A stretch of 64,000 nucleotides of DNA from Bryobacterales bacterium (GTDB lineage Bacteria > Acidobacteriota > Terriglobia > Bryobacterales > UBA6623). A program made the translations under genes and the position numbers. The notes beneath the pieces were generated by a model. It saw only the letters and a program-made list of their open reading frames with translations. It was not told where the DNA came from and made no database searches. The stretch is taken from contig CBDEGI010000002.1 in NCBI GenBank assembly GCA_965237575.1, positions 607,022-671,021 on the forward strand, written 5' to 3'. Position 1 is the stretch's first letter. Every line of letters starts with the position of its first letter. This document shows, piece after piece, positions 12,338 through 63,736 of this stretch.

Positions 12338-15331
12338 TGATCGGCCAAACCATCTCGCACTACAAGATCACCGAAAAACTCGGTGAAGGCGGGATGGGAG
12401 TCGTCTACAAGGCCCAGGACACCGAGCTCGACCGGCCCGTCGCCCTCAAGTTCCTAGCGCCCCCACCTGCTCCGCGACGAAGAGGGCCGCAAGAGGTTCC
12501 GGCGCGAAGCGAAAGCCGCCGCCGCACTCGACCACCCCAACATCTGCACTGTCTACGAAATCGGCCAGGCCGATGATCAAAACTTCATCGCCATGGCCTT
12601 TCTCGAAGGCCGCACGCTGAGCAAGAAGATCAGCGATGGCCCGCTGAAGCTGCCCGAGGCCCTTTCCATTGCCACCCAGATCGGCGAGGGACTCGAAGCA
12701 GCCCACGAGAAGGGCATCGCCCACCGCGACATCAAGCCCGACAACGTGATGCTGATGAAAGGCTCGCGCGGGCTGCTCAAGATCATGGACTTCGGCCTCG
12801 CGCAACTCGCCGAGAGCTCGAAGCTCACTCGCGAGGGGACAACGCTCGGAACCCCCACCTACATGTCCCCCGAGCAAGCGATGGGGGAACCCACCGATCG
12901 CCGCTCCGATATCTGGGGTCTCGGCGGTGTGCTCTACGAGATGGTTGCCGGTAAGCCACCTTTCAGAGGCGAAGTCGATCAAGCGGTCATCTACTCCATC
13001 GTGAACGAGGAGCCGGAGCCGCTAACGGCGGTGCGCACCGGTGTTCCCAAGGAGCTTGAGCGCATCGTCGACAAGTGCCTGGCGAAGGATGCGGCTGAAC
13101 GCTACCAGCACGCCGAGGACTTGTTGGTCGATCTGCAGCGGCTGCGGCAGGAGTTGGAAACGGGAGCACCCAAGCCGGCGGCACGGCCTACACCTGCCCG
13201 CAGGTTTTCACCCGCCGTGATTGCTGCTGCCGGCGCGGTCTTGCTCGTTGCGGTGGGCCTTACTTGGTGGCTCGCCGGCTCATCGGAAACAGCCGCTCCC
13301 CCTCAATACAAACTGACCCAAATCACACGCGACACCGGCTACACCGCCGATCCGGCTCTGTCTCCGAACGGGCAGCTTCTTGCTTATGCCTCGGATCGTC
13401 AGGGCGACGGCAACCTTGACATCTGGGTGCAGCAACTGACCGGCGGGGGAAATCCGGTCCGCCTAACACAGCACGAAGCCGACGACCACGCGCCGTCATT
13501 CTCGCCCGACGGCAGCCGCATCGTCTTTCTCTCGGACCGCGACAACAGCGGGATTTACGTGACGGGGTATGCACTTGACTCCCGACGACCTCACACCTTG
13601 TGGTCGGCGACTGCGGCGACCGTACCCTCGAGGGGCCATCGGGCAGCGGTCGTGGGTCCTATAGCCGCCGCTCATTGCGCCCCGCGGGGGGACGGCAGCG
13701 GTTGACTTTGAAACCTGAAGGCGAAGCGCTCTTGAAACTCCCCAGCGTGCGCGAATAGTCCTCCAGAGCCCGGATACTAGACCTTGGGGCTTCGGGAGTC
13801 AAGTGCATACCCCAGTTACGTGATTCCGGCGCTTGGCGGAAGTCCGACACGCATTGGACGTGGCTGGCGATGGGCGGCACCCCGTTTCTCTCCAGATGGG
13901 AAGTGGGTCACTTTTTCTCGACCTAGGCAAGATAGCGATTTTCAACAGTTCTCCCATATTGAGATCGTCCCGGCTTCAGGCGGTCCACCGCGGATCGTGG
14001 AGGCAGGCCTGCCAATTGCCGCCGTGCCGATCTGGTCACCCGACGGACAGCATCTGATGTTCATAGGGAGCGAGGAGCCGGGTGGAATTGGCAAGCAGAT
14101 AGACCTCGACTGGTGGCTTGTGCCCGCCGCGGGGGGCGAGCCCGTTCGACTAGGAGCTCGAGAGCTATTCGAAAAACATAGAATCGTACCAGCGGGACCC
14201 ATCGATACCCATCCCAACAGGAGGTTCCCGGCTCCTCGCGCTTGGCTAGCTGACGATAATCGACTGGTCTTCGGCGGGGCGATCGGTGGTGCGGCAGCCA
14301 ATCTGTGGCAGGTTCGAATCTCACCCAGCGACGCCAGACTTGTCGGGGAGCCCCAGCGACTCACCTCGGGAACAGGCGAGGAAGACCCTTCCGCCTCCCA
14401 AGACAGCCTCATCGCGTTCGTCAACCCAGCCCGCGATTGGGATATCTGGAGCCTGCCGCTCGACGCTAATCGCGCCGAGGTCCGCGGAGAACCGGAGAGG
14501 GTCGTCTCAGCACTGAGCGACGAGCTGTACCCATCGATCTCGGATGATGGGCAAAAGCTTGCCTACGCGTCAGACCGCGCCGGTAACCGCGATATCTGGC
14601 TTCATGACCTAGAAACCGGCGAGGACACGCCCATAACGATCGCTCCCGAGAACGAGGGGCGGGGAACGATTTCACCCGACGGTTCGATGATCTCCTTCAT
14701 CCGCCGGGAGCAAGACAAACGCAACCTATACGTCATGGACCTCGTCCAAAGGAGAACGAAGCTGTTGGTCGAGGGCGTCGGCAGCATGTTGGACTGGATG
14801 CCGGGAGGCAAGCGAATCCTGTACTACACGCCTCCACCTCTACGCTGGAAGACCGTGGATGCGGAGACAGCCGAACAAGCCGATGTCGATCTCACGCACC
14901 CCGAGTACCACCCGGAAACGCTTCGATTCTCTCCTGATGGTGAGTGGCTTGCGTTCAATCTTGCGCTCCAACCCGAACGGCCGCTCTTCATTTCCCGTAT
15001 CGAGCAGGGCCAACCAACCGCACACGACGAATGGATTCAGATCACCGAGGGTTCGGCCGCTAGCCACCCTTGGTGGTCGCCCGACGGCAATGTACTCTAT
15101 TTCCGTTCCCGTCGCGACGGGTTCCACTGCGTCTATGCCCAGCCGTTGGAGCCCGCAACCAAAAAGCCGCAAGGGCCCCTGAAGTCGATCCGGCACTTCC
15201 ACGGGCGCATTCGTACTGTCGGTGTCGGCGGGGGAGGCTTCGGCTATGCCATGACCCACGATCGTCTCTATCTGCCGCTCGGCGAACGCAAGGCCAACAT
15301 CTGGCTGGCCGAACCGCAAACCGAGCCGTGA
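12337..15331 (+). pseudogene. Ser/Thr protein kinase with TM segment and TolB-like beta-propeller, disrupted by a homopolymer frameshift and a 253-bp TIR element
   Basis: Pieces are 12337..12576 (frame 1), 12593..13705 and 13784..15331 (frame 2). Kinase motifs: [38 protein letters not shown]. TolB-like repeats follow (SPNG/SPDG…). The C5 run at 12460-12464 shifts the frame; with C4 it reads [34 protein letters not shown]. Removing 13563-13815 plus one TSD restores …DNSGIYVIPALGGSPTRI…. Confidence 0.85.
13563..13815 (+). mobile_element. Non-autonomous TIR element, family A (MITE-like), copy 1, inside the kinase gene
   Basis: Termini are cGGGGTATGCACTTGACTCCCGA … TCGGGAGTCAAGTGCATACCCCag. It is flanked by the direct repeat TTACGTGA (13555-13562 and 13816-13823). 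About 99% identical to 63199..63452. Confidence 0.85.
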
Positions 15332-15375
15332 CCGTGAGGGAGCGGTCCGGCACGAACCCTGACGCAACTCAAAGG
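15319..15375 (+). repeat. 57-bp dispersed repeat (copy 1) overlapping the kinase stop codon
   Basis: aaccgagccgtgaccgtgagggagcggtccggcacgaaccctgacgcaactcaaagg. A reverse-complement copy lies at 33476..33532 and a partial copy at 25376-25390. It contains the imperfect hairpin CCGTGACCG…CGGTCCGG. Confidence 0.8.
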
Positions 15376-15428
15376 ATTCTATAGCGCACCTCTGTTGCCA
15401 CTCACGACTCGACAAACCTTTGTATCAT

Positions 15429-15465
15429 AAAGTACTTGACAATAGTGGACAACCCATTCTATCCT
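15429..15465 (+). promoter_or_regulatory. Candidate promoter (TTGACA-N18-TATCCT) overlapped by AT-rich palindrome AAAGTACTTg
   Basis: TTGACA at 15436-15441 and TATCCT at 15460-15465. The near-palindrome AAAGTACTTG at 15429-15438 recurs as the perfect AAAGTACTTT at 16539-16548. The region is unusually AT-rich for this window. Confidence 0.3.
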
Positions 15466-15475
15466 TGGCAGGAAG

Positions 15476-16102
15476 ATGGCTTCGCCCAACCCCATCCCCT
15501 CCCGCTCTACCGCTCCCCGTGACGAGCCGGTCGTCCTCCACGCCCACGCCATGGAGAACCTGCGGTTCATCCGCGAGACGATGGAAAGCTCGGTGGTATT
15601 CACGACCCTGCCCGGCTGGGGCGCCGTCGCTGTCGGACTGACCGCTCTGGCGGCGACCTGGCTAGCCGCGACCCGATCGTCCCACAGCGAGTGGCTGGCC
15701 ACGTGGTTGGCCGAGGCCGTGCTTGGCGTCGTGATCGCCGCGGCCGCCACAGCCTGGAAGATCCGCGGCACGGCAAGCCCCGTTCCACTGCGGCCCCTGC
15801 GAAATTTCGTTCTCAGCCTAGTGCCACCGCTGATCGCTGGAGCCATACTCACGGTTGTGCTGGTTCGGGCAGGCGCCATCAATGCCATACCCGGTACCTG
15901 GCTATTGCTCTACGGTGCCGGTATCGCAACCGGAGGCTCCGTCTCGGTGCGCATCGTCCCCGTCATGGGACTGTGCTTCATGTTGCTCGGTGCGCTGGCC
16001 CTGTTCTGCGACGCGTCTTGGCATAACGCGATCTTGGCCGCCGGGTTCGGAGGCCTCCATCTCGCTTTCGGGTTGGTCATCGCCAGGAGGTACGGTGGCT
16101 AG
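15476..16102 (+). CDS. Polytopic membrane protein, unknown function
   Basis: 208-aa ORF with SD AGGAAG and about 5 hydrophobic helices (GWGAVAVGLTALAATWLAA, AVLGVVIAAAATAW, LVPPLIAGAILTVVLV, LLLYGAGIATGG, VMGLCFMLLGALALF). Its stop overlaps the next gene's start. Confidence 0.65.
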   Translation: MASPNPIPSRSTAPRDEPVVLHAHAMENLRFIRETMESSVVFTTLPGWGAVAVGLTALAATWLAATRSSHSEWLATWLAEAVLGVVIAAAATAWKIRGTASPVPLRPLRNFVLSLVPPLIAGAILTVVLVRAGAINAIPGTWLLLYGAGIATGGSVSVRIVPVMGLCFMLLGALALFCDASWHNAILAAGFGGLHLAFGLVIARRYGG

Positions 16103-16505
16103 ATCAAGCGCGGCGCGCAAGCGCACCACCGAGCCGACCGGGCAGACGACGGAGGCAAGTCCGTCGGCAGAACGGAAGCCCACTCCCGTGCACTCCACGA
16201 AGAGCAACCAAGCGCTTCAGCTCAACCGGCTGATTCACGAAAGGACGCGACTAGCCATCGTCAGCGCCCTCGCCGTCAATACATCCCTCAGCTTCACCGA
16301 ACTGAAGACTCAACTGAATATCACTGACGGGAATCTCAGCGTGCACGCCCGTAAGCTCGAGGAGGCCGACTACATCGCATGCTCGAAGACTTTCGAGAAG
16401 CGCGTCCCGAAGACCCAATACAAGCTGACCCGTAGTGGCCGGCGCGCGCTGGAGCGCTACCTGGATCACATGGAAGCCTTGATCGAAGCCACACGGGACC
16501 ACTAA
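16095..16505 (+). CDS. Winged-helix (HTH_34-like) transcriptional regulator
   Basis: GTG at 16095 sits after AGGAGG (16085-16090) and overlaps the upstream stop by 8 nt. The sequence LNRLIHERTRLAIVSALAVNTSLSFTELKTQLNITDGNLSVHARKLEEADYIACSKTFEKRVPKTQYKLTRSGRRALERYLDHM is typical of small wHTH regulators paired with a membrane protein. Confidence 0.7.
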   Translation: MARSSAARKRTTEPTGQTTEASPSAERKPTPVHSTKSNQALQLNRLIHERTRLAIVSALAVNTSLSFTELKTQLNITDGNLSVHARKLEEADYIACSKTFEKRVPKTQYKLTRSGRRALERYLDHMEALIEATRDH

Positions 16506-16531
16506 AAGGCTTTTTTTTGGACATAGACTTT

Positions 16532-17311
16532 ATGAAACAAAGTACTTTTCAATCGTCATCCTTGCACGTAGCAATCATCATGGACGGCAACGGCCGCTGG
16601 GCTGCAGCGCACGGCCGGCCCCGCGTGGAGGGACATCGCCGCGGCGCCGACGCCGTTCGCCGAACCGTCGAGGCCTCGGTCAAGCTAGGCATCGGCACGC
16701 TGACGCTGCACGCCTTCTCGGCCGACAACTGGAAACGTCCCGCTCGCGAGGTGGACGAGCTAATGAGGCTGTTCCGGCGATTCCTGCTCGCCGAATCAGC
16801 ACGCTGCGCGCGTGAGGGTGTGCGTGTACAGGTGATCGGCCGCCGCGACCGCCTCGATGCGGCACTTCTATCCGCAATCGAGAAGACCGAATCTGCAACC
16901 TCGTCCGGCGCCGCGTTGCACTTGCGGATCGCGGTGGACTACTCGGCACGAGAGTCTACTCTTGCTACCGCGCGACTGCTGCGAGGCCGCGAGGATGTTA
17001 CGCCACAGGCCTTCGTCAAAGCACTCGCCGCCGCTATCCACACCGACGAAACCACCCCCGACGTTGACCTGTTGATTCGCACTGGCGGCGAGATACGCCT
17101 GAGCGATCTGTGCGGCTGGGACAGCGCCTACGCCGAGTTGGTCTTCAGCCAAAAGATGTGGCCGGACTTCGACGGCCTCGATCTCGCTTCGGCACTAGAC
17201 GAGTTCCGGAAACGCGAGCGGCGCTTCGGAGCGCTGCCGACTAACGGCGCGAACGGCACTTCCATGCCGATGCCCGCTGTCTTCATACCCCAAACCCCTT
17301 CCAAGGAGTGA
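16532..17311 (+). CDS. uppS: Isoprenyl transferase (undecaprenyl-diphosphate synthase family, cis-prenyltransferase)
   Basis: Signature HVAIIMDGNGRWA is present, followed by GHRRG…LTLHAFSADNWKRP…, IRTGGEIRLS and AYAELVFSQKMWPDF. ATG at 16532 is preferred over TTG at 16517. The next gene starts 10 nt after its stop. Confidence 0.85.
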   Translation: MKQSTFQSSSLHVAIIMDGNGRWAAAHGRPRVEGHRRGADAVRRTVEASVKLGIGTLTLHAFSADNWKRPAREVDELMRLFRRFLLAESARCAREGVRVQVIGRRDRLDAALLSAIEKTESATSSGAALHLRIAVDYSARESTLATARLLRGREDVTPQAFVKALAAAIHTDETTPDVDLLIRTGGEIRLSDLCGWDSAYAELVFSQKMWPDFDGLDLASALDEFRKRERRFGALPTNGANGTSMPMPAVFIPQTPSKE

Positions 17312-17321
17312 TGAACGAGAG

Positions 17322-21066: not shown

Positions 21067-21120
21067 CGTTCGCCGATAGCTCGGTCGCAGCACCGCGCGG
21101 AAATGCCATCATATACACAT

Positions 21121-22772: not shown

Positions 22773-23185
22773 TATTGCCTCAGGTGGCACTGTCCTGGAC
22801 GGTGATGTCCCTGATGGCAGGATCGCGGAGGACGGTGGCCCAAACGGCGGCCAGGCCTGCGTTGCTGAGACGAGATCAGCGCCCGTCACTGCGACAGCCA
22901 CGTCGGCGACCTGGGCCGGCTAGTCGGCCGTTTGGCAAGGTTTTCGGTAAGGTTGTCATTCATGGGTTGTCACGTCATCCTCGCCAGCCTCAGGGTAGCG
23001 CACCGGTCCGAGGTACTCGGCCGTTTTCTCCGCAAGTTATTGATTCGGTGGGATGAAGATTCTGTGACTGTGGTACCGACGATGGAGGTGTTGCACAACG
23101 GAATGGTCGTGTAGCGCCGATCCACGTTGGAACAGGGCCGCGAGGTCGCCTTGCCAACCCGGGTTCGGGCTTTGTCCCCGAACTG

Positions 23186-23261
23186 CCGAGGGGGACCAAC
23201 GCCCGAGCTGAGGCCGCAGGATGAAGGGGAGTGCCAAAAATGGGCTCCGTCCCCTTTAGCC
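23186..23261 (+). repeat. ~76-bp direct repeat DR1 (left flank of RAYT remnant)
   Basis: ccgagggggaccaacgcccgagctgaggccgcaggatgaaggggagtgccaaaaatgggctccgtcccctttagcc is repeated at 23719..23795 with a few mismatches. Confidence 0.8.
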
Positions 23262-23718
23262 CCCCAAGCGGCCGGATTCACTGGCGAATACGCTGCGGCG
23301 AACACACTCCCGCTACGCGCAGACCTTCAATGAGCATTACGGGCGCAGCGGACACCTGTGGCAGAACCGTTTCTTCTCGTGTTGCCTTGACCGCGATCAC
23401 TTGATCACGGCGCTGGCGTACGTGGACCTGAATCCTGTGCGAGCGGGAATGGTCGGGGACGCGCAGGAGTACCCGTGGTCAAGCGCTCGGCCGCACGTCG
23501 AGGAGGAGGACCCGCTCGGACTCATCGACTTCTCGCTGTGGCGAGAGGTGCGAGGGCGGGGTAACTGGGCGGAGTGTCTGAGCCGACCGTTGGATGCAGA
23601 GACGGTCCAGCGTCTCCGGGAGGCGACGCAGCGGGGGGTGCCCTTGGGGAGTGAGGCTTTCGTGAAGGCTTTGGAGCGTAGCACCGGACGGTGTCTGGCG
23701 CTGCGAGGACCGGGGCGG
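23260..23718 (+). pseudogene. 5'-truncated REP-associated tyrosine transposase (RAYT / COG1943 IS200-like) remnant
   Basis: The frame-1 translation LANTLRRTHSRYAQTFNEHYGRSGHLWQNRFFSCCLDRDHLITALAYVDLNPVRAGMVGDAQEYPWSSARPH… matches the C-terminal two thirds of RAYT-type proteins. No HUH-containing N-terminus and no start codon. The frame opens just after the TAG at 23257-23259, inside DR1. Confidence 0.7.
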
Positions 23719-23853
23719 CCGAGGGGGACCAAGGCCCGAGCTGCGGCCGCAGGATGAACGGGAGTGACAAAGAATGGGCTCCGTCCCCTTTAGCCCCAAG
23801 GCCCGAGCTGCGGCCGCAGGATGAATGGGAAGTGACAAAGAATGGACTGGACC
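23719..23853 (+). repeat. Direct repeat DR2 plus partial third copy (right flank of RAYT remnant)
   Basis: DR2 spans 23719..23795. A partial copy (ccaaggcccgagctgcggccgcaggatgaatgggaagtgacaaagaatgg…) spans 23796..~23853. Confidence 0.75.
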
Positions 23854-33475: not shown

Positions 33476-33532
33476 CCTTTGAGTGGCGCCGGGGTTCGTG
33501 CCGGACCGCTCCCTTACGGTCACGGCTCGGTT
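33476..33532 (-). repeat. 57-bp dispersed repeat (copy 2, reverse orientation) overlapping the stop codon of the GH-like gene
   Basis: The reverse complement reads aaccgagccgtgaccgtaagggagcggtccggcacgaaccccggcgccactcaaagg. Confidence 0.8.
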
Positions 33533-33871
33533 GATTCCGTGGATAGCTCGGCGACGCCGATGTGTGCGTAAACGCCGGCCGAGTCGGTTCGAGTGCGGCC
33601 CTGGTTGTCGGTGTACTCGTTCTGCCAATCGCGCGCCGAGTAATACATCAAGTAGCGGTCTTCGAGACTGACGACCGAGGGTGTCGAGGTGTAGCGGCCG
33701 TCGAACAGATCTCTGCCTCCTTCAAGACCATGGGCGGCAGGGAAGGCCTCGCGGCTGTGGTCGGTGTCCCAGTGGGTGCCGTCGCGCGAGGTCGCGCAGA
33801 AGATCTCGAACGTCCCTCCGTCGAGGTGGCAGCCGTACCACATGTAGTACGTGTCGTTCTCTTTGAGGACA

Positions 33872-34146
33872 AGTGGGGTATCCATTTGACTCAGGTGACC
33901 ACAACATACTGTGGTTGGCCATTGGCGGCCCCCGGAAAGGCTTGCCGATAGCACCACGTTTCCAAGCCTGCGATGGCCATGGCGCGTGCGTAATCCTTGA
34001 TCGGCCCGAAACGCAGCCTCGTGGCCCAATTGCCTGCAGACCGGCGTCTGGCGCCCCAGGGTGCATTCTGGGTGCAGTGTGCTGGCGTCCATGGATCGAC
34101 CAAACCACAACGCCTAGGGGCTACCTGAGTCAAGTGGATACCCCAT
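33872..34146 (-). mobile_element. Non-autonomous TIR element, family B (MITE-like), copy 1, inside the GH-like gene
   Basis: agtGGGGTATCCATTTGACTCAGGT … ACCTGAGTCAAGTGGATACCCCat. The 9-bp direct repeat TTGAGGACA lies at 33863-33871 and 34147-34155. By eye it is identical, as a reverse complement, to 63462..63736. Confidence 0.85.
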
Positions 34147-34975
34147 TTGAGGACAAATGGATAGACGGTCGAGTTCGCCCTGCCCGTGGGCTGCAAGACC
34201 GGCTGATCGGAGCGTTCCCATTGGACGCCGTCGGTTGAGGTGAACTCGTAGATGTTTCGATAGAGATCGCCGGGGGGATGTTGGCGACTCGGCCGCGATC
34301 CCATCCACATGCGATAGCGTCCGGGGCCTTCTTTAATGACTGACGGCGAACGGCCTGATTCGTAGATTGGCTCGGGGTGAATCCGCCACCGGATTCCGTC
34401 GCTGCTGGTGGCGTAGCCGAGCGCCTGTGTCATCTCGGTCATCTGTCCCGCCTCATCGCGCTCAATCTCCGTCACCGACACGAACCACATCTTGTAGATG
34501 TGCTCGTCGTCGTCGAACAGCACAAAAGGTGTTTGAAAGTTCGAGCCCCAAGGTAGGTCGTCGCCCGTGAGGATCGGATTACCGTCATACTCTCGCCACT
34601 CGATGCCGTCGTCGGACTCGGCGTACCCGAGGGCGATGTCCGAAGAGCGGGAGCCGGTCGAGGTGCCCAGGTACCACATCTTGAACTTGCCGTCCCGGCG
34701 GAGGACGTGAGGCGTATAGAGGACAACCTTTGACCAAGCTTGCTGGGTCGTGCCGGCTGAGAGAATCGGCTCGGGCCTTCTCTCCCACGGTTGTGGACGT
34801 TGGTCGAGCGGATGGGGTCTTGCGCTGGTCTGATCGGTTGACGCAGTTGGAGCGTCGGGTGATTCCGAGCAGCCCAGGCCCGCGAGGAGCAAACACAGGG
34901 CGACCCACAGGAGCTTGTTGCGAGATCGCCGCTTTTCTTCGGGTGAGTCTGATATTGGAGGGTGTTGTGGTACGA

Positions 34976-35000
34976 GGGCACGGCATGCCGTGCCCCTACA
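34976..35000 (+). repeat. REP-like palindrome, copy 4
   Basis: GGGCACGGCATGCCGTGCCCCTACA, lying within the first 20 codons of the only available reading frame of the GH-like gene. Confidence 0.85.
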
Positions 35001-35039
35001 TCTCAAACCCTGAGCACGAGTAAATCGACAAGTCACATT

Positions 35040-37353
35040 TCACTCCTTGTAGGTGACGAAGAAAGGGGAGATCCACGCTGCTTCGGGATCGCCTGTTGGG
35101 TTCTCGGGATCGCGCTGGAAGACGCGCAGGTAGTAGTAAGTTTCTCCGACGGCCGCATCGAGATCACGGTAGGAAACCTTGGCCGTGCGCTTACCCGGCC
35201 GCGTCGTGTAGACGTACTTGCCGTTCTTGACCACGTCGATCCGTAGGATCTCGTCGGGCGCCTCGATCTCGGCCTCGATCTGGGGAGGGCGTGCAGTGGA
35301 GGCTTCGAACCTCGCGCCCGGCATGTAGCGGTCCGCCGAGGCGCGCACGATGATTTCGTCGCTCGCGCCATAGCTGTGCCGGGCAAGCATCCCGTCGAGG
35401 ATGCCTTGACGGTCTTCGGTTTCGGCCCAAACTGCGGCCCAGCTATTGTGCGTCGAGAAGTGGTCGCTGAAGGAGACGAAACCGTAGACGTTGCCTTTCT
35501 CGAGCGCGTCGCGGGCGAAGTGTCCGGGCTCGTCGGTCTGCGTGGGGCCGCGCTTCTCGTCATCGGGCAGCCGCCAAGCCTCGTAGCTGCCACGGAATGC
35601 CTGGTAGATCTCGAGTACCGAGTCGTAGGCTGGGTTGGGCCAGTTCCAATCAGCCAGCGGGCCCGAGCCGAACGTGTGCGGGACGACGACGACCTTCTGC
35701 CCGGGTTGCGTGAGGACGTTGCCCTCGATCCACTTCCACAGATTCGGAGGCAGGTTGTCCTCGGGCCTACGCTCGCGGTCGATCAGGCGCATCGGCGCGC
35801 CGCGCTTGAGGAAGAGCAGGTTGCGATGGCCGCCCGGCCGCTGCAGGCTGTGCTCGTAACTATAGATGCCGACGAACACGGGCGCGTGCGTCATCAAGTC
35901 GACGGCCTTTTGCGTCCACCACCACTGGTAGTCGCGAAGGCCGTCGGCGCGGCGGACGCTCGGCAGGGCGGGGAAGCGTGACTTCGGTGAGTTGAGCGGC
36001 CACTGGCTGGTTGGTTTTGGGCAGATCGGTTACGTACGCGCGGTAGTGCAGGGCGTGCAACTGCTCGGTGGGGACGTTGTCCGCCGAGCGGCCATCGCCG
36101 GCATAGGCGACCGTAGTGCGGCCCATGGGGGTCCGCGCAAGCGACGCGAACTGCGTGGCGCGGCCCGAGCTTTTGGAGAGCCGCGACGGCAGCGACCACT
36201 TTCCGCCGCTCAGGTGCGTGGCAAAGAACTGGTGCGCGGTGATCGGTTCGGAGAGAGTCCAGTGGCGGAACAGCAGCCACAGGGCCCCACTGCCATCAAA
36301 GGCGAGATGCGGAAGAGCGGCGTAGCGCGTCATCCCGCCGGAGAGGACTTGCGAGACGTCCGCCGAGGGCTGCTGGAGGCGTCCGTTGGCCCACACGCGA
36401 AGGCCGATGGAGCGTGAGTTGTAGAGGCCGCGGCTGCCGTCGACCGCGCTCGAGCGCGAGAAGTCCTTGCCCCAGTTCTCGCCACCTTCGTCCCAGGCGA
36501 CCCAGACACGGTCGTCGGCATCGACGGCGACGCTTGAATGGAATTGCGCGGCCGTTTCGGTCGTGATAGGGATGACTTCGCCGGGACGGGTGCCGTTGAA
36601 CGAGCGTAGGAAGACGTCGTAGTTGCCGTGGTGATAGGAGTCCCAACTGACCCAGGCGGTGCCGGACGAATCGAGGGCCACGGCGGGCTGCCAGTCGTTG
36701 GCGTCGCTGGTGGAGATGCGGACTTCCGGTCCCCACGCGTCGCCGTTGAAGCGGCGGGCGTAGATGTCGGAATTGCCGTTGCGGAAGGACTGCCAGGCGA
36801 TGATGACGTTGCCGGCGCCGTCGGACACGGTCTTGACGTTGAAGTCGCTGTGCGGCGAGCGCGTGAGACGGTAGGGCACCGAGAGCTCGCCTTCCGGGGA
36901 GAGCGTGCGGCTGAACAGTTCGAAGTTCCCGTCGACCTGCCTGGACCAGACCACCAGGGCGCCGTCAGGCGTGGCGGCGATCGCCGGGGAATAGTGGTCG
37001 CCCCAACCGCTGACCTCGATGGGGTCGGACGGGCCTATGTGTGGTTTGTGAATCCGCGCCACGACTCGGTCGGCCTGTTTGCCGTCCCATTCGACGTAGG
37101 CGCAGTAGAGCGCGTCGTCGACGCCGTAGGTGATGGCGGGCCAGTCCGCCGTGTGGCCGGGGCGGCTCAGCGCCGAGCCGGGAAACTCTCCCGCGAGCCG
37201 GAGCGGCGAAGGTTGGTACCGGGTCTCGCGCACCCACTCGCGCTCGGGTTCACCCGGCTGCTGAGCCTGAAGAAGAGTCGTGGTGACGAAGGCAAAGCTG
37301 AGAAGTAACCGGCGTGGAGCGATCAAGCGTGTCACGTACCCGCGATTATACAT
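35040..37353 (-). pseudogene. Decayed paralogue of the beta-propeller/PHP-type metallohydrolase at 58580..61480 (frameshift plus loss of metal-binding segment)
   Basis: ORFs 35860..37353 and 35040..35897 align with the N- and C-terminal parts of the 58580..61480 product (ANDWQPAVALDSSGTAWVSWDSYHHGNYDVFLR vs ANDWEPSVAVNSRGEAAIAWDSYRHGNYDIFLR; YQWWWTQKAVDLMTHAPVFVGIYSYEHSLQRPGGHRN vs YLWRMVDKAVDVYKIPGVFYPLLNYERTVAYPDGHRN). The segment with GDLHRHTDLS is absent. The frame change lies between ~35900 and 35960. Confidence 0.7.
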
Positions 37354-37521
37354 CCGGCGGTTGCCCAGCCCTCTTCGCCCGGGAGACCAGCCGGCCTAGG
37401 GGAGCAAGTTGCCCAGCCCTGTTGGGGTGAAGCGAAACTTCAACCGCTGCCTCCAAGTCCCGTTCTGGGCGATCGCCCGGGAGACCAGCCGGCCTAGGGG
37501 AGCAAGCCCACTTCTTCTCTA

Positions 37522-37717
37522 CTGGGGTATGCACTTGACTGAGTATCCGGGCTCTGGAGGACTATTCGCTCTGGGGAGTTTCAAGAGCGCTTCGCCTTCA
37601 GGTTTCAAAGTCAACCGCTGCCGTCCCCCCGCGGGGCGCAATGAGCGGCGGCTATGCCCCTCAGGGTGCGGTCGCCGCAGTCGCCGACCACCGTCGGGAG
37701 TCAAGTGCATACCCCGA
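37522..37717 (-). mobile_element. Family A TIR element, internally deleted copy (196 bp), intergenic
   Basis: ctGGGGTATGCACTTGACT … GGGAGTCAAGTGCATACCCCga, flanked by the 8-bp direct repeat CTTCTCTA (37514-37521 and 37718-37725). It aligns with the reverse complement of the full copies with four internal gaps. Confidence 0.8.
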
Positions 37718-37811
37718 CTTCTCTATTGGACGGGGCGGGCCGCAACGGCCAAATCTTCTGCGGCCGCCTGATCGCTTTCCCCGGCCCTGACTCGCTGTTG
37801 GAAGCGGGCCC

Positions 37812-39049
37812 TCATCCGTTTGGCTTGCTTTGGGGTGAAGCGAAACGTGTGAAGCGAAACTTACCGCGGATCGCCTTTTCCAAGTCTCCGTTCTGCCAAG
37901 TCGCCTTCATGATCCCTTGGTTGGAATGACTTCCCGAACCAAGGAGGAAGTGCCCGATCTCATGCGCCAGAATGTGACCCAGCGCGACAGAGCGGTAGGA
38001 ATCCATGTCAGCCGCGAGTTCGTTCACACGGTGATAGAAGACAACGGCCTGGCTGCCGAACCCGTTCGCTTTGTCCGAAAGCACGGCGAAGCCAAAGCTC
38101 CCTTCCGGCACGGTGAACCGCTCCGCCATTTCGCGCGGCAGGATTTTCAGCACCACAACGGTCGGACCGGATGGGACCCGGCAAGCAGGATCGAGTTCCT
38201 CGTCGGACAGACTCATCGAGCAGTCCAGCCAGCGAGTCGGAATCCCGGCCTCCGAGAGCACCTCCTTGGCGTCCTCGGTGGCCCACTCGATCATCGCCGG
38301 CGACAGCCGCGCGTAGTCGTAGAGCCGTACCTGGAGCTTCGTGACAAAGGTCGGGGGAACTGATCTTGCCGCTGCTGCGGCAGGTATCAGGCGACCAGTA
38401 GCAGCAGCCATCGCGACGCTTGCCGACACCAACCGCTCTTTCCATTGTGCATGTATCCGCCCGGCCTGCTTCCGCGTGAAGATCAACTGTCCCCGAGCGG
38501 CTCGTAGCAATTCCTTCTCCTGCCACGGGATGTGCATCAGGCCGCTCCGCGAGTGGCTCCCTTTACCAAGTAACAGATGTCCGACTTCGTGAGCCATGAT
38601 GTGTCCCAAGAGCTGTCCCGTCGAGATCGCAATACCTCCTGGGATGCGCGCTTGCTCTTCCCGCACCCGGTGCACGAACACATCGGCGTGCGTCCCGAAC
38701 TCCCCCTTTCGCGAAGGCAACGCCGCGTAGCCGAAACAGCTGGCGGGTACCGGGAACTTTTCCGCCGTGGCCTTCGGGAGAATCCTCAGAACCAGTGACG
38801 TGAACACCGGAACCTGAGAGCAGATCGGCTGGCGGGGTCCGGGGCGGTTCGGTCCAGAGAGTCCGGTAGGGCAGCCTCGGCCCTGGCTCCGCCCAGAGTC
38901 CGCGGGGAAACCCCGGCGTAGTCGTATATCTTTACCGTAAGCTTGACGTCCGGGCGTGTGACTGGTGCGGAAGCAGCTCGGGCGACCTCCGCTGCAATGA
39001 CTACTGAGAAAACGCTGAGAATGAGTGAAGTTGCGAATGACCTGCGCAT
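37812..39049 (-). pseudogene. Tandemly duplicated HExxH zinc-metalloprotease-like protein (two units in one reading frame; first unit frameshifted near its N-terminus)
   Basis: Unit 1: signal peptide MRRSFATSLILSVFSVVIAAEVARA…KLTVKIYDYAGVSP (ORF 38786..39049), continuing after a frame change at ~38830 as …LVLRILPKATAEKFPVP…GHIMAHEVGHLLLGKGSHSRSGLMHIPW. Unit 2: …LQVRLYDYARLSP…VVLKILPREMAERFTVP…GHILAHEIGHFLLGSGSHSNQGIMKATW. There is no stop between the units. Confidence 0.6.
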
Positions 39050-56963: not shown

Positions 56964-57041
56964 CCGTTACAGACCGGGACCAAACGAGTTTCTCGGGCAG
57001 CCGCTCCTTCCGGGTTCGATGTCGCTCGCAGCGAGGCGACT

Positions 57042-58565
57042 TCACTTGACCTGGAACGAATACAGGTCCGCGTCTTTTAGCACGAAACGCAGGCGAACCG
57101 CCTTGCCCGCCAACTTCCTGACATCGGAGCCCCGTTTCCAGGCAACCGTGCGGGCTGGCGTGTCGCCGTAGATCGGCGGACAGTCGTCCAGGGTGAAACC
57201 TTCGATCGCGTCGCCATCGGAGTCCTGAAGCTCAACGCGAATACGGCCCACGGTGGAGGTCGAGAAGTTCAGCACCAGTTTGCTGCCCGCGAAGACGAGT
57301 GGCTGCGTGATCAATTCGCCGCCGGCAAAGGGCGCCTGGACCGAGACGAATCCGTCGAGGCGTAGCGTATAGCGGCGAAGGCGGTTGCCGTCCGGCTGGC
57401 GGCCGCCTTCGCTGGCGTAGATCGATAGCTCGTTCGGGGCACCCTCCATCGATGACGGGGTTTCGACTAGCCCCCAGTTCCCGTAGTTGTCACCGTAGAA
57501 CCAGCTTCCCGGACGCTCGACACCCGGCCGCCGGAACGCTTCCGGCCATAGCTCGAAGTTATGTCCGTCGCGGCTTGCCATGAAAACGCCGTCTGTCATC
57601 GCTGTCCCCGAGCGCTGGGATTTGCTCGCCACGATACGGCGGTAGTCGAGCTGCGGAAGAGCCTTGGTTGACTCCGACCAGCTGTAATCGACGTAGCGCG
57701 TCGGGAAGCCGAGGAAGATATGGGGCGCGCGGTGGTAGGGGACGACGCCGTTGGTGTAAAGCTGGTGGGGGCGTCCCGGCGTGTAGTCGAGAAACTCGGG
57801 CTCGGACCAGTGGATGAAGTCCTTCGACGTGGCGGTACGGATGTCGCGGCCATCGGGATACTTCGGGTCGTTCTTCCGGGAGTCGCGCCAGTAGGCCCGG
57901 TACTCGTTGCGCAACGTGTCCCAGAACGCGACATTCTGCGAGTCGAAGTTGCCCTTAGTGATGACGGGACTCTCGGTCATCAACTCCCAGCGAATCCCGT
58001 CCGCGGACCGGAACGCCCGCAAGCCGCCCTCTTTCCAGCGGTGGCCGCCGAGCGCCTTGTAGCGCGACTCGCGCGGGCACGCGGGGTTGGCGTCTTTGAA
58101 TACGGAGAAGTTGTGCGAGCCGACGCCGTCCCAGATGATGTTGTTTTCCTTGGAACCGTGGGACTCGATCAGGCCGAAGCGGGGCCGCTTCCAATGGATG
58201 CCGTCGCGACTCTCCGCGTAACAGATCACCTCGCGGTTGGTGGCCTCACTCTCGCCATCGCTGTAGGCGATGTGGAAGCCGCGGTAGTACATGCGATAGA
58301 GATCGCCGTCTTGGAACACGGTCGTGTAGCCGCTGGCGTTGCCCTCCCAGGGCTTGGTGCGGTCGAGCGCAACCTCTCGCGGCACGGGACGATGGAGAAC
58401 GCGCCGTGCTTCGCCCGTCAGCTTGTCGACCAAGTGGTCGTCGACGAAGAGTTCGAGGCGCGAACCGATGTCGATGGGCTCGGCGGCGGTAAGAGTAAGC
58501 GGAAGGGCGAGGGCAACCATCAGCAGTCGAGTGATCGTTACGGCGTGGATCATGTTTTGGGTCAT
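57042..58565 (-). CDS. Secreted beta-propeller glycoside-hydrolase-like protein with C-terminal beta-sandwich (GH32/43-clan-like)
   Basis: AGGAGG lies 7 nt upstream of ATG 58565. Signal peptide LLMVALALPLTLTAAEP. Blade motifs: LYRMYYRG, CYAESRDGIHW, FRSADGIRW. C-terminal lectin-like domain: RIRVELQDSDGDAIEGF. Confidence 0.65.
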   Translation of the reverse strand: MTQNMIHAVTITRLLMVALALPLTLTAAEPIDIGSRLELFVDDHLVDKLTGEARRVLHRPVPREVALDRTKPWEGNASGYTTVFQDGDLYRMYYRGFHIAYSDGESEATNREVICYAESRDGIHWKRPRFGLIESHGSKENNIIWDGVGSHNFSVFKDANPACPRESRYKALGGHRWKEGGLRAFRSADGIRWELMTESPVITKGNFDSQNVAFWDTLRNEYRAYWRDSRKNDPKYPDGRDIRTATSKDFIHWSEPEFLDYTPGRPHQLYTNGVVPYHRAPHIFLGFPTRYVDYSWSESTKALPQLDYRRIVASKSQRSGTAMTDGVFMASRDGHNFELWPEAFRRPGVERPGSWFYGDNYGNWGLVETPSSMEGAPNELSIYASEGGRQPDGNRLRRYTLRLDGFVSVQAPFAGGELITQPLVFAGSKLVLNFSTSTVGRIRVELQDSDGDAIEGFTLDDCPPIYGDTPARTVAWKRGSDVRKLAGKAVRLRFVLKDADLYSFQVK

Positions 58566-58579
58566 GCATTTACCTCCTC

Positions 58580-61480
58580 TTAGTTCGTCTTGTAGTTCAC
58601 CCACATGGGGCTGCCCCAGGCCATGTTGTTGTCCTGCTGGATCACGCGCACGTAATAGTAGTGGGTACCGGGCTCGATGTCGGCATCGGTGTAGGTGAAG
58701 GTGACTTCGCTGACTCCGGGGTGAGCGGTGTAGACGAAGGTGTTGTTCTTGATGATGTCGATTTGTTGGATCTCGCCCGTGCCGATGATTCGCACATCTA
58801 ATCGGGGCGGTTCGGTGGCGGAGAACTCCTCGCCCATCGCGTGGCCGCCGCTTTGAAAGTCGACGATGATGTTGTCCGTCGCGGCGTAGGTGCGGCGGGC
58901 ATGGAGTGAATCCCAGATGCCGTCGTAGCTGCGTTCCGGCGTATAGACCGCGGCGTACGACATGTGGGTCGAGCGATGGTCGGAGCTGGCGATAAACCCC
59001 ATCTTGTAACCCTTCGCCAGCGCGTTCCAGATGAAACCTTTGGGGTGAATCTCGCCCGACGAAATATAGCCCCCGACCACGATCTTCTCCGCCACCGCTC
59101 CTCGCGGCGCGCCCAAGTACTCATAAGAATCACGGTTGCCCTGGAACATCTCAACGAGACGCTCGGCCTGTTCGTCGTTGTAGCGCCAGTCGGTACCCAT
59201 CTGGGTAGCGGTAGTGTGCGGGATGCTGATGGCTTGCTGCTCGCCGCCTGACAGCAGTTGCTTCCAGAGCATCAGCATGTCGTCTTCGGCGACGCCGTTG
59301 GCGCGCTCGCCCGGCTTGATGCGCACCGGCTGATAGCCACGCGAGCGCCACACAATGTTTCGATGGCCGTCGGGATAGGCGACCGTCCGCTCGTAGTTCA
59401 GCAACGGATAGAACACGCCGGGAATCTTGTAGACATCGACGGCCTTGTCGACCATGCGCCAAAGATACGACGTATCCACCTTCTCGGGCAGCAGGTGTTC
59501 CGACGGCCCGAGGAAGTCCATGCGGGCGGCGTCGATGGCGTAGCGGTAGCAGTCGTAAAGGCTGCCGTCGCTGTAGCCGTCGAACGAGAGGTCGGTGTGG
59601 CGGTGCAGGTCGCCCCAGGTCACGTGATACTTCTTGCCGCCCACCTCCATCTGGTAGGTCTTCCACAGTGGCGTGGCGAGCTTGGGTTCGGCGTCGCTGA
59701 CGATCTCGGGTGCCGGCAGGTCATCGGCGCCGACGAAGAACTCGCTTTCGACGTGTCCGCCGGGGACTTTGTCGAGATCGATCTTGCCGGCATAGACGTC
59801 GTATTGCCAGAAGCGCGCGTCATCGGGGAGATAACTCTTGCCGTCTGTCTGTGACGCCAGCCAAAGACTGCCCGAGGGATCGACGGCGGCGGCGGGGCGT
59901 TGCTCAATGCGTCCGTCGGAGAAGGGAATCCACACGGGCGGCGTCCACCCATGGCCGTCGAACATGGTGACTTTGTAATCCCAGTAGGGGAAGATCGAGC
60001 GCGCGGCGACCGTGGGTGGGTTCGGGCGCCCCAGCGTGCGCGTTCGCAGGATGGCCCAGACGCGGCCCTTGCCGTCCACTTGAAGAACGGGGTACTCGGT
60101 GTAAGTGCGGCGCGCGCTGTCGAGGCCGAGCGCCATCCAGCTTCCCGTGATCGGGCTCGCTGCAAAGCGGTGATCGATCGGGACGGCGGGTTTGGCGATG
60201 CGGCCGCGATCGAGCACGCGCACCTGTGCCTGGCGATGGAAGTAGAGGCCGCTCTCACCGCGGTGGATTCCGTTGATGCCGTAATGGTCCTTGCCCCAGT
60301 TCGGCCCGCCGTTGTCCCAGGCCATCCAGAGGCGCTCGCGATGGTCGTAGGCGAGGCTGACGTGCGCTTGGAAGTCGGGGCTGGCGGTGATGCGCTCGAG
60401 CGGCCCAAGCTTGCCGTCGACGTAGCGCCGCAGAAAGATGTCGTAGTTGCCATGGCGGTAGCTGTCCCAGGCGATCGCGGCCTCGCCGCGTGAGTTGACG
60501 GCGACCGAGGGTTCCCAATCGTTCGCCGGGTGCCCGGTGACCTTAATCGGCGCGGACCAGTCGTCGCCGCGCCGGACCATCAGTGAAATGTCCGTATTGC
60601 CTTGGGCGTTGGCTTTCTCACCGGACTGGTAGACGAGATAAACGTCGCCGTTGGGCGCGGCCGCCATGCGCGGGAAGGTGTCGGGTCCGGGTCCGCGCGT
60701 CAGTGGTTCCACCACCGGGACGCCGCCGATCGAGTATCCGGCTTTCAAGAGTTGGACGCGGCCGGCACGAATGGCCGACGCTACGGCGGTCACGGCCCGG
60801 GGTTTGGTCGCTATAAGCGCGACCTGGTAGTAATCGCCCGGCGGCGCGAGCGTGACGGGCTCGTCCCACGCTTTGCCGTCAATGGACGAGCGAAGTTGGA
60901 TCGTATCGGCGCCGTTCTCGAACGCAATCCATGCCACCCAGACGCGTCCGTCCGGCCCGATCGTCATCGCCGGATAGTCGTCGTCGGCGAGGCTCTCGGA
61001 CATGCGCTCCACCGCGGGGACGCGCTCGATGCGGATGCGGCTGTCCAGCCGCTTCAAGGTTTGCTGATAGCGCACCTCGCCCGCGCGAAAGGACGCGCTG
61101 CCCTGCTTGGTTTCGATCGAGACGCGGGCTTGATCGCCGCCTTCGACATCGACGACGACGCCCTTCCAGCGCGTGGGAGGGAAGTCGGCGGCGTCCTTCG
61201 GCTCCATCTGGAGTTTGCCGTCCCACTGGTTGCCGCACTTCCACGACGAGGCGTCGAACGTCTCGCCGGGGCCGAAGTGATGGGCGGTGACGATCGTCGC
61301 GCCAGCCTCCGCCGAGATGCTGCCGCTCCAATCGACGACCGCCGGATCGGCGCCTCCGAAGAGGATACGGAAGCGTTGCTGCGCGGGGAGGGCCTGCTGT
61401 GCGGAGAGGGGTAGCGCCGCCGCGAGCGCCACCAAGCAGAGTAAGGTTCGAGTGGAAAGGGTCGGGGTTGATCCACACAT
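58580..61480 (-). CDS. Secreted beta-propeller + PHP/CehA-McbA-like metallohydrolase
   Basis: Signal peptide MCGSTPTLSTRTLLCLVALAAALPLSAQQ (ATG 61480). Propeller repeats: GPDGRVWVAWIAF, NDWEPSVAVNSRGEAAIAWDSY. PHP-like metal motif: WGDLHRHTDLSFDG. The ORF-track start at 61720 is unlikely. Confidence 0.7.
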   Translation of the reverse strand: MCGSTPTLSTRTLLCLVALAAALPLSAQQALPAQQRFRILFGGADPAVVDWSGSISAEAGATIVTAHHFGPGETFDASSWKCGNQWDGKLQMEPKDAADFPPTRWKGVVVDVEGGDQARVSIETKQGSASFRAGEVRYQQTLKRLDSRIRIERVPAVERMSESLADDDYPAMTIGPDGRVWVAWIAFENGADTIQLRSSIDGKAWDEPVTLAPPGDYYQVALIATKPRAVTAVASAIRAGRVQLLKAGYSIGGVPVVEPLTRGPGPDTFPRMAAAPNGDVYLVYQSGEKANAQGNTDISLMVRRGDDWSAPIKVTGHPANDWEPSVAVNSRGEAAIAWDSYRHGNYDIFLRRYVDGKLGPLERITASPDFQAHVSLAYDHRERLWMAWDNGGPNWGKDHYGINGIHRGESGLYFHRQAQVRVLDRGRIAKPAVPIDHRFAASPITGSWMALGLDSARRTYTEYPVLQVDGKGRVWAILRTRTLGRPNPPTVAARSIFPYWDYKVTMFDGHGWTPPVWIPFSDGRIEQRPAAAVDPSGSLWLASQTDGKSYLPDDARFWQYDVYAGKIDLDKVPGGHVESEFFVGADDLPAPEIVSDAEPKLATPLWKTYQMEVGGKKYHVTWGDLHRHTDLSFDGYSDGSLYDCYRYAIDAARMDFLGPSEHLLPEKVDTSYLWRMVDKAVDVYKIPGVFYPLLNYERTVAYPDGHRNIVWRSRGYQPVRIKPGERANGVAEDDMLMLWKQLLSGGEQQAISIPHTTATQMGTDWRYNDEQAERLVEMFQGNRDSYEYLGAPRGAVAEKIVVGGYISSGEIHPKGFIWNALAKGYKMGFIASSDHRSTHMSYAAVYTPERSYDGIWDSLHARRTYAATDNIIVDFQSGGHAMGEEFSATEPPRLDVRIIGTGEIQQIDIIKNNTFVYTAHPGVSEVTFTYTDADIEPGTHYYYVRVIQQDNNMAWGSPMWVNYKTN

Positions 61481-63198
61481 GGTTCGCACCGATCCACAAT
61501 CATACTGGAACCAGCGTGTGCATCGGTCGCACAAATGATTCGAGCTGTCCGGCTCAACTAGCCAAGGGCTACACGCCTCCCATCTGCTGGAACAAGGCGC
61601 CGATCTGCCGACGGTCAGGCGCTGCTCGTCAAGCTCACAGCGATCTACCTGCATCTGTCCGAGCGTCTGGCCGTTATCATTCGTGCGGTCCGCCGGCCAC
61701 AGCGGGTGCGAAATGCTCACGGCCGCTGGACAGCCGAGCGTCGCGCCTCCTCAAGCGGTGAAGCATCGACGTTCTGGGCAACGGAAGCCACTGGTTCTAA
61801 AGGGTTTCGAACCGCTTTACACTTTTGGAGACGAGCCCTTTTATCTTGGTTTGACGCTGAGCCGATCCAATAGTGCCTACTTGAGGTAAAATCAGCTAAC
61901 CTTAATGGTCCTGATCGAACTTCTGCACTCGGAGGGAAACATGAATATCCCAAGTTCTGTCTCACATATACCCTTTATTCGTGCGGGCAGGCTTTGCCGG
62001 TGCCTGGCGCTCTTCGTCGTCGTTCTTTTCCCCTGTCAGACTCGGAGTCAGATTGAAACAGGCAATCTTATGGGGTTAATCGCCGACGGCACCGGGAGCG
62101 CGGTGCCGGATGCCGCACTCACCGTCTCCTCGGCGAGCACGAGCCTACAGCGGACCACCAAGTCTAACGCGTATGGGCGCTATTTCGTGCCCTATCTTAC
62201 TCCGGGGAAATACGAGCTGGGAGTCAGCAAGAACGCGTTCAAGAAAGCCGTCGTGTCTGCTATCACGCTCGAGGTGCACCAAACCGCCCGAGTCGACGTC
62301 AGTTTGGAGGTCGGAGACATCGAAACGACAATCACGGTCGAGGCGCCGGCTGCCGCAACGCTGCAAAGCGATAACACGACTGTGGGAGGAGACATCGAGC
62401 AACGTGCTCTCGAGGAGCTGCCGGGACGTGACGTTTTTACCTCCCTCAGTCTGTCGACTAACGTGGCCAACCTCAGGATGCATGGTTTCAATGGCAACGT
62501 GCTGAGCGGTCTCCAGCCCGGCAGTAATCGATTCCTCTCGGCGAACATGAATTTTGGCGGGCAGCGCCAGACGGCGAATTACTACTGGCTGGACGGACTT
62601 TCCAACACCAACTGGAACATCAACTCCATGACGAACACCCCGTCTGTTGAGTCGCTCCAAGAGGCCCGGGTTCAGGTCAGCACTAGCTCGCAACAATTCG
62701 GCCAGGCACCGGGAGGAATCATAAACGTAGTGACGCGAGCCGGAACGAACGACTTCCACGGCGAAGTCTACAATTACCTGCGCAACGACGCTCTCGATGC
62801 CCAGCCCTATAACTTCAGTTCGGAGGTCCAGCCGAAAGCCCCACTGCACCATAACCAGTTCGGCGCAAGCTTCGGCGGACAGCTGATAAGCGACAAGGTC
62901 TTCTTCTTCGCCCACTATGAAGGCTTGGAGGCGCGCAGCCGGCAGGAAGGTAGCGCTTCGCCCCCCACCCACCGCGCTCGCGAAGGCGACCTGACGGATT
63001 ACGGCCGGACCATCTACGATCCGCTCAGTACGAGCGGCGGTTTCCGAACGCCATTCCCGAACAACACGATTCCAAGGAATCGATTCAGCCCGGTCGCGAA
63101 CAAGTATCTTGAGTTCACGCCGCTCCCCAACGTGCCCGGTGAGATTCAGCGGAACTTCCTCGGGCAGCGGCCCTCGAGAACGCACAACAATCAGGGCA

Positions 63199-63452
63199 TC
63201 GGGGTATGCACTTGACTCCCGACGACCCCACACCTTGTGGTCGGCGACTGCGGCGACCGTACCCTCGAGGGGCCATCGGGCAGCGGTCGTGGGTCCTATA
63301 GCCGCCGCTCATTGCGCCCCGCGGGGGGACGGCAGCGGTTGACTTTGAAACCTGAAGGCGAAGCGCTCTTGAAACTCCCCAGCGTGCGCGAATAGTCCTC
63401 CAGAGCCCGGATACTAGACCTTGGGGCTTCGGGAGTCAAGTGCATACCCCAG
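63199..63452 (+). mobile_element. Family A TIR element, copy 3 (254 bp), inside the TonB-dependent receptor gene
   Basis: tcGGGGTATGCACTTGACTCCCGA…TCGGGAGTCAAGTGCATACCCCag, flanked by TCAGGGCA (63191-63198 and 63453-63460). Confidence 0.85.
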
Positions 63453-63461
63453 TCAGGGCAA

Positions 63462-63736
63462 ATGGGGTATCCACTTGACTCAGGTAGCCCCTAGGCGTTG
63501 TGGTTTGGTCGATCCATGGACGCCAGCACACTGCACCCAGAATGCACCCTGGGGCGCCAGACGCCGGTCTGCAGGCAATTGGGCCACGAGGCTGCGTTTC
63601 GGGCCGATCAAGGATTACGCACGCGCCATGGCCATCGCAGGCTTGGAAACGTGGTGCTATCGGCAAGCCTTTCCGGGGGCCGCCAATGGCCAACCACAGT
63701 ATGTTGTGGTCACCTGAGTCAAATGGATACCCCACT
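63462..63736 (+). mobile_element. Family B TIR element, copy 2 (275 bp), immediately adjacent to the family A copy
   Basis: atGGGGTATCCACTTGACTCAGGT…ACCTGAGTCAAATGGATACCCCact, flanked by TCAGGGCAA (63453-63461 and 63737-63745). Confidence 0.85.

Follow-up and report, generated by a model that had tools for sequence, protein, structure and literature searches.

What are the five short, near-identical repeats scattered through a 64-kb stretch of a bacterial genome, and what moved them there? The stretch, hereafter the window (64,000 nt; C2:607022-671021), belongs to the source genome (G000), a long-read metagenome-assembled genome (MAG) of a Bryobacterales bacterium (Acidobacteriota) comprising 7.55 Mb in 4 contigs with 62.6% G+C. 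An earlier note, made from the window sequence alone, had described the repeats as two families, A and B, of recently active, non-autonomous elements with shared termini. We conclude, with a probability of about 93%, that they are miniature inverted-repeat transposable elements, or MITEs, mobilised in trans by two related insertion sequences (IS) of the same genome, IS-A and IS-B, which belong to the IS1595 family, whose eukaryotic relatives are known as Merlin. The anatomy and numbers of the copies, the partner elements, the target logo and the empty sites in relatives are all direct observations and are described in turn below.

Inspection of the window sequence and a repeat search both placed the two families and their five copies where the earlier note had them (Table 1). 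Within the window there are 10 occurrences of the 18-nt terminus GGGGTATSCAYTTGACTC, compared with 0.08 expected from shuffled sequences. The repeat search recovered A1 and A2 as a 254-nt direct repeat and B1 and B2 as a 279-nt inverted repeat with 100% complementarity, while the deleted copy A3 was picked up via an 85-nt core. The B copies, which had looked identical by eye, are 100% identical across 279 nt, and the two full A copies, previously thought to differ at about 2 positions, differ at one internal position and by a terminal T lost from A1. A3 is more degraded, with four internal deletions (12, 25, 4 and 17 nt) and one mismatch in a terminal repeat. The true ends lie further out than the GGGG and CCCC blocks first taken as the element ends, giving lengths of 254 bp for A and 276 bp for B, both below the ~600 bp that serves as a limit for MITEs. 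No transposase gene is present in the 64-kb window, as had been stated, and the partner elements are located elsewhere in the genome.

Further copies, which the earlier note had proposed to look for, proved abundant. Pairing the 565 termini found across the genome into two-ended elements yielded 75 copies of MITE-A and 161 of MITE-B, spread over all four contigs and totalling 62 kb (0.8% of the genome). The majority of B copies (119 of 161) are identical over 270 nt, and A consists of three main variants with 25, 17 and 15 copies. Flank logos define conserved ends of TC-GGGG...CCCC-AG for A and AAT-GGGG...CCCC-ACT for B, with terminal inverted repeats of 28 nt (93% match) and 23 nt (96% match), respectively; the outer 18 nt of the two families differ at just 1-2 positions. 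Neither family contains a start-to-stop open reading frame (ORF) with a family match. The absence of a transposase, together with terminal inverted repeats and target duplications in both families, supports the original view that A and B are non-autonomous. We also observed that one frame on the minus strand of MITE-B (63461-63736) is free of stop codons over the entire element (91 codons).

A search for autonomous elements with the same termini, likewise suggested at the outset, revealed 20 elements of ~1 kb, of which there are two types. One, IS-A, is 1024 bp long and encodes an intact 317-aa ORF in 8 copies, with ~7 others degraded, and the other, IS-B, is 1028 bp long with an intact 310-aa ORF in 3 copies. 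Both transposases match the Pfam domain DDE_Tnp_IS1595 (PF12762; 5.7e-31 and 9.1e-29), carry Zn_ribbon_IS1595 (PF12760; ~1.6e-13 over residues 17-60) and score 197 and 208 bits against the NCBIfam model transpos_IS1595 (NF033547), compared with a cut-off of 75. The proteins are 68% identical to each other. Mobilisation by the same or by closely related transposases had been proposed from the shared termini, and it is the second form of that proposal that is supported, given two IS1595-family elements with family-matched termini.

Each MITE family resembles one of the two IS. Nucleotides 1-47 of MITE-A match one end of IS-A with 91% identity, and nucleotides 159-251 (about 95 nt) match the other end with 81% identity over a stretch that takes in the 5' region of the transposase gene, so that MITE-A derives from an IS-A-like element by internal deletion and rearrangement. 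What MITE-B has in common with IS-B is an identical first 23 nt of the terminal repeat and ~45 nt at each end with 85-89% identity, and nothing more. At position 8 of the terminus, A and IS-A have G and B and IS-B have C, and the subterminal sequence is CCCGA in A and IS-A and AGGTG in B and IS-B. The positions that separate A from B (8 and 19-24 of the repeat) thus co-vary with the respective IS, a pattern more suggestive of two cognate IS/MITE pairs than of one common enzyme.

Several other elements in the genome are related to these. A third IS1595-type transposase (~335-342 aa, starting LRGIRLTQVTPRC, with a zinc ribbon and DDE_Tnp_IS1595) is encoded at C2:~149,736 and C2:~532,544, and both copies hold a MITE-B at the extreme 3' end of the ORF, indicating that the MITEs also insert into other IS copies. 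In addition, a 406-bp element (C4:1972226-1972631) combines an A-type terminus with an unrelated interior, and two elements of ~1.05 kb (C2:28504-29551 and C4:2558875-2559957) lack an intact ORF and end in variant termini (GGGGTATTCGGTTGACTC-like), so the genome contains more members of this IS/MITE clade.

Target duplications were consistent with a single length for both families. An exact 8-bp duplication flanks 57 of the 75 A copies, the length that had been reported for A. For B, a length of 9 bp had been reported and was not upheld: based on end-plus-duplication length, 87 of 161 copies are in exact 8-bp register, with 51 one nucleotide and 12 two nucleotides shorter, and register analysis resolved the apparent 9 bp into 8 bp plus an element-borne terminal A and T. 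The longer reading arose because the element's own terminal A happens to match or adjoin the A/T-rich flank. Target sites have the consensus AA[T-N6-A]TT, with 121 of 189 scorable sites matching WWW-N6-WWW (W, A or T) and another 64 matching at 5 of the 6 positions; the 7.5-Mb genome offers 12,649 such sites. From these 189 sites, a clean logo of the target of an IS1595 lineage emerges.

Together, these features suggest how the elements may have spread. A transposase with a zinc ribbon at its N terminus and the DDE_Tnp_IS1595 catalytic domain at its C terminus would bind the ~23-25-bp terminal inverted repeats and insert the element at an A/T-flanked WWW-N6-WWW site by an 8-bp staggered cut, which would give rise to the 8-bp target duplication. 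In this lineage, B would have expanded very recently to ~160 copies, most of them still identical, and A to ~75, with insertions in ~90-100 genes whose purging would be yet to happen. We also infer both the assignment of each transposase to its MITE and the chemistry of transposition.

Consistent with recent insertion, the genes interrupted in the window can be restored on paper and are intact in a close relative. The four copies that had been placed inside genes break three of them, A2 and B2 sharing one. A1 breaks a kinase gene at approximately residue 365, leaving ORFs at 12593-13705 and 13784-15331; its 261-nt insert is in frame yet contains stop codons, and joining the flanks restores an ORF of at least 870 aa. 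B1 breaks a propeller gene at approximately residue 298 of ~411 with an insert of 284 nt, which therefore shifts the frame, and the A2+B2 pair breaks a receptor-like gene at approximately residue 433. Joining the flanks gives back long ORFs at all three genic sites, and each of the broken genes gains stop codons within the element. ORFs restart at TTG codons inside two of the MITEs (13784-15331 for A1 and from 63498 for B2), and the distal gene halves might be translated if transcription comes from within or through the element.

Table 1 Repeat copies in the window, their target duplications and the genes that they interrupt.
Feature	Position	Strand	Description	Target duplication
MITE-A copy A1	13563..13815	+	253 bp, outermost T absent	8 bp, TTACGTGA at 13555-13562 and 13816-13823
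MITE-A copy A2	63199..63452	+	254 bp, commonest A variant	left, TCAGGGCA at 63191-63198
MITE-A copy A3	37522..37717	-	196 bp, intergenic	CTTCTCTA at 37514-37521 and 37718-37725
MITE-B copy B1	33872..34147	-	276 bp, matches genome consensus exactly	8 bp, TGAGGACA at 33864-33871 and 34148-34155
MITE-B copy B2	63461..63736	+	276 bp, consensus sequence	right, TCAGGGCA at 63737-63744
Common middle target copy	63453..63460	.	right duplication of A2 and left duplication of B2	TCAGGGCA
Ser/Thr protein kinase with PD40/TolB-like beta-propeller (A1)	12593..15331	+	Pfam Pkinase 3e-44, PD40 3e-56	
Secreted five-bladed-propeller glycoside-hydrolase-like gene (B1)	33520..35036	-	weak GH130, GH32 and GH43 matches	
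TonB-dependent-receptor-like outer-membrane protein gene (A2+B2)	61905..64000	+	CarboxypepD_reg and OMP beta-barrel; continues past window end	

Empty sites, another of the proposed checks, were found for all three genic insertions in a sister genome of the same genus (G002), which carries uninterrupted orthologous sequence at the A1 site (85-89% identity), the B1 site (95%) and the A2+B2 site (96%, with 500/500 nt contiguous). The A1 empty site reads ...GGGATTTACGTGGTTCC... without a break, and the B1 empty site is also present in a further relative (G003, 83% identity). Full-length MITE-B was not found in any of the 40 relatives searched, and MITE-A occurs in G002 at 99% identity and as contig-end fragments in G001, so the B expansion is a lineage-specific and very recent burst. 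The very recent activity that had been claimed is thus borne out by the identity among B copies, by their absence from relatives and by the empty sites. We also found a 135-nt stretch with 100% identity to MITE-A on a 5.6-kb contig from a different genus (L010, G010:C35:897-1031), which is due either to mis-binning of the contig or to horizontal transfer in recent times.

How often do the elements interrupt genes across the genome? All two-ended copies were removed by script and genes were then called with a self-trained codon-usage model, resulting in 5,225 genes that cover 80% of the genome. Overall, 104 of 215 unique insertion sites (48%) lie within predicted genes, compared with expectations of 80% for random positions and 65% for target-consensus sites (binomial p = 1e-6 against the latter). 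Because genic sites are depleted relative to the 65% expectation, selection appears to be acting already. The caller placed the five copies of the window correctly, and Pfam domains were detected in 8 of 10 randomly sampled genic fragments, two of them other transposases. In a survey of 183,232 genomes, bacterial MITEs were ~90% intergenic (PMC11602168), and the genic load here is unusually high compared with the ~10% genic share in that survey, which supports in relative terms (~48% versus ~10%) the earlier remark that the genic insertions are striking. The simplest explanation is recency, with selection begun and not finished, and the ~90-100 broken genes are best viewed as recent insertional pseudogenes and not as odd gene architectures.

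Some considerations weigh against this account. The gene caller is crude, an excess of insertions in the first tenth of genes suggests over-extended starts, and some of the 'genic' insertions are located at the extreme ends of genes or within other IS elements; a fair range for the genic share is 40-48%. Beyond the terminal repeats, identity between the MITE ends and those of the resident IS is just 81-91%, so the exact parents are either missing from this genome or have diverged. The pairing of A with IS-A and of B with IS-B is drawn solely from similarity of the terminal repeats, and cross-mobilisation could occur. In a long-read MAG such as this one, polishing of the consensus could slightly raise the identity among copies. 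Finally, mobility is deduced from sequence rather than from directly observed transposition.

The question of cross-mobilisation leads to an alternative in which both MITE families are moved by one transposase, such as the one encoded by IS-A, the more abundant of the two IS, and IS-B plays no part in the B burst. A and B are nearly the same over their outer 18 nt, the two enzymes are similar (68% identity) and IS-B has just 3 copies although B is the more abundant MITE, all of which would fit a single enzyme. Cognate recognition, however, predicts family-specific co-variation of the repeats, and this is what we see: the first 23 nt of the B repeat equal those of IS-B and depart from IS-A at position 8 as well as all along positions 19-24, where A matches IS-A. 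We therefore regard mobilisation by one enzyme as unlikely and retain the two cognate pairs as the preferred reading.

Two other possibilities can be given far less weight. The copies, their near-identity or their tandem arrays might be assembly or polishing artefacts, as the genome is a MAG and 119 identical copies are unusually clean. Yet every copy has flanks unique to it and an 8-bp duplication of its own, joined flanks give long ORFs with Pfam domains, an independent sister genome holds the matching empty sites, and contigs of 1-4 Mb imply reads that span 276-bp repeats. Moreover, A keeps distinct variants and array copies (described below) keep private mutations, so the repeats have not been homogenised, and an artefact seems barely conceivable. 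Further copies exist, autonomous elements with the same termini exist and the copies are not assembly duplicates; on each of these points the earlier note could have failed and it did not. Hardly more credible is a role for the elements as functional sequences recruited by the host, for instance small RNA genes or regulatory or repetitive extragenic palindromic (REP)-like sequences, rather than as selfish MITEs. Single strands do fold far better than shuffled sequences (z = -5.3 and -4.2) and one B frame is open over its full length, but the fold, whose prediction had been recommended, is essentially the stem formed by the terminal repeats. A scan of the A+B pair against Rfam returned no match (best E = 0.78, far under the gathering score), approximately half of the copies interrupt genes, in either orientation, and the absence of full-length B from all 40 relatives gives no indication of a conserved function. 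No target duplications accompany REP elements, which rely on Y1 transposases (REP-associated tyrosine transposases, RAYT), not on DDE enzymes. An identity as REP or bacterial interspersed mosaic elements (BIME) with a RAYT was rejected given the 8-bp duplications and the DDE-type partner.

The preferred reading of trans-mobilised MITEs leaves one feature of the window to be explained, namely that A2 and B2 lie side by side. The sequence TCAGGGCA is present three times at this pair, and its middle copy flanks both elements, indicating that the same 8 bp were cut twice. Genome-wide, 24 junctions join two elements via 12-15 nt that represent the 8-bp duplication plus end nucleotides, whereas the target preference, as measured, predicts only ~1.3 coincident pairs (~18-fold fewer), which led us to reject chance coincidence as the cause. 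The largest array contains four copies (C4:2340794-2341903). Mutations in array copies are private rather than shared, and the spacers of a single array can differ by 1 nt; these observations rule against tandem duplication by unequal recombination and indicate that arrays grew by successive insertions. Junctions between two-ended B copies are head-to-tail in 17 of 17 cases (p ~1e-5; ~20 cases when three with truncated copies are included), compared with 3 of 5 A-B junctions, the other 2 being in a different arrangement. Dimers also appear elsewhere as intact units. The dimer at C4:3934262-3934815 has the spacer ATTATGGAGTAAGT, which recurs inside the dimer at C2:86839-87392 together with a new outer duplication TCAATGTA, and the spacer ATTTCAGCCATGT of C3:1662578-1663130 recurs in the dimer at C4:3944433-3944985 with the outer duplication TCAGGAGA. 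With the inner spacer of another locus and a new outer 8-bp duplication, these two B dimers have clearly moved as units.

As a tentative reading, to which we give somewhat worse than even odds, the IS1595-family transposases of this genome may favour re-insertion into the 8-bp duplication beside a resident copy (end- or inverted repeat (IR)-targeting), which would produce arrays of up to four independent insertions as well as dimers mobilised as composite elements. The arrays may stem either from end-targeting with orientation specificity, as in IS30 and IS911 (PMC9333248), or from a hot, regenerated target combined with the loss of long inverted B-B palindromes. The AAT end of B restores a WW flank, in keeping with a hot target, and palindrome loss would likewise remove inverted B-B pairs. 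Long palindromes are unstable in E. coli. A strict-pattern search of 76 family members for abutted junctions found one, in another genus, and is a weak search given that the terminal repeats there differ slightly. This junction (L102, G050:C2:2013-2058) reads ...GGATACCCC-ATATACCGTGAAAT-GGGGTATCC... with a 14-nt spacer and the same architecture, so abutted pairs are not unique to the source genome. We found no specific literature on head-to-tail MITE arrays in bacteria or on MITEs in Acidobacteria.

The window also contains other repeats. Two 85-nt direct repeats at 23185-23269 and 23718-23802 (GCCGAGGGGGACCAA...GGGCTCCGTCCCCTTTAGCCCC) are 78% identical and separated by 533 nt; they bear no relationship to A or B and may represent another small repeat family. 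The intergenic flanks of A3 (37300-37900) have short repeats of their own, with GGGAGACCAGCCGGCCTAGGGGAGCAAG and GGGGTGAAGCGAAAC each present twice and a third, shorter version of the latter, GTGAAGCGAAAC, nearby. Lastly, degenerate tandem repeats of ~280-300 nt with 75-81% identity at 3522-4379 lie within a 1075-aa ORF (1623-4850) and probably encode repeated protein domains.

How do these elements compare with known systems? IS1595-family elements are described as having 8-bp duplications and one transposase gene that encodes an N-terminal zinc finger and DDE_Tnp_IS1595 (PMC8101967), and ISApl4 generates A/T-rich 8-bp repeats (PMC12561309). IS-A and IS-B resemble the zinc-finger-bearing groups of this family (such as ISPna2, ISNwi1 and ISSod11) in that one transposase gene with a zinc ribbon and a DDE domain fills an IS of ~1 kb, the terminal inverted repeats open with GG and the 8-bp duplications are A/T-rich (PMC8101967; PMC12561309). 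The zinc ribbon places both outside the IS1016 subgroup, which has no zinc finger (PMC8101967), in contrast to all other groups. A closer parallel to the MITEs is found in Haloquadratum walsbyi, where a 165-bp, ISHwa6-related and IS1595-derived MITE occurs in 7 copies with a 25-nt inverted repeat and an 8-bp direct repeat (PMC3852290, Table 4). Like A and B, it is a short non-coding derivative with repeats of ~25 nt and an 8-bp duplication that needs an IS1595-family partner. Unlike it, the families described here have a 10-20 times higher copy number (~75 and ~160), occur as two families in one genome, each with a putative cognate IS, consist mostly of identical copies, are approximately half genic and form head-to-tail arrays.

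MITEs of the IS1595 family are therefore an already known kind, and the present ones are notable for the scale of the burst, its freshness and the number of genes broken. The repeat class is expected to recur in every window of this genome and in its relatives, and the host is a free-living acidobacterium amid a transposon burst, a phenomenon better known in host-restricted bacteria. Other high-copy MITEs include the Correia elements of Neisseria, RUP of Streptococcus pneumoniae and Nezha of cyanobacteria, which derive from other IS families, have other duplication lengths and are mostly intergenic. Like these, A and B comprise tens to hundreds of copies of 100-300 bp with terminal repeats that are mobilised in trans by a resident IS. 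The intergenic share of A and B is ~52%, compared with ~90% for bacterial MITEs in general (PMC11602168).

Target re-use and mobile dimers are the only aspects that might be new for this transposase family, and they offer a modest, testable lead on IS1595 transposition, a poorly studied mechanism. IR-targeting has been described for IS30 and IS911 (PMC9333248), and the pattern here may be comparable: new copies lie directly beside a resident end, the B-B junctions all join a left end to a right end, which palindrome loss could also produce, and the dimers are themselves mobile. The differences are that the transposase is of another family, that the spacer is a full 8-bp duplication rather than 2-3 bp and that mixed A-B pairs show no orientation specificity. 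The likeness is known here from junctions in the assembly rather than from circle or active-junction intermediates, and it may be superficial. If end-targeting is true, a behaviour so far described for IS30 and IS911 would extend to the IS1595/Merlin superfamily, and this genome would be a natural record of the birth of MITE arrays and composite transposons.

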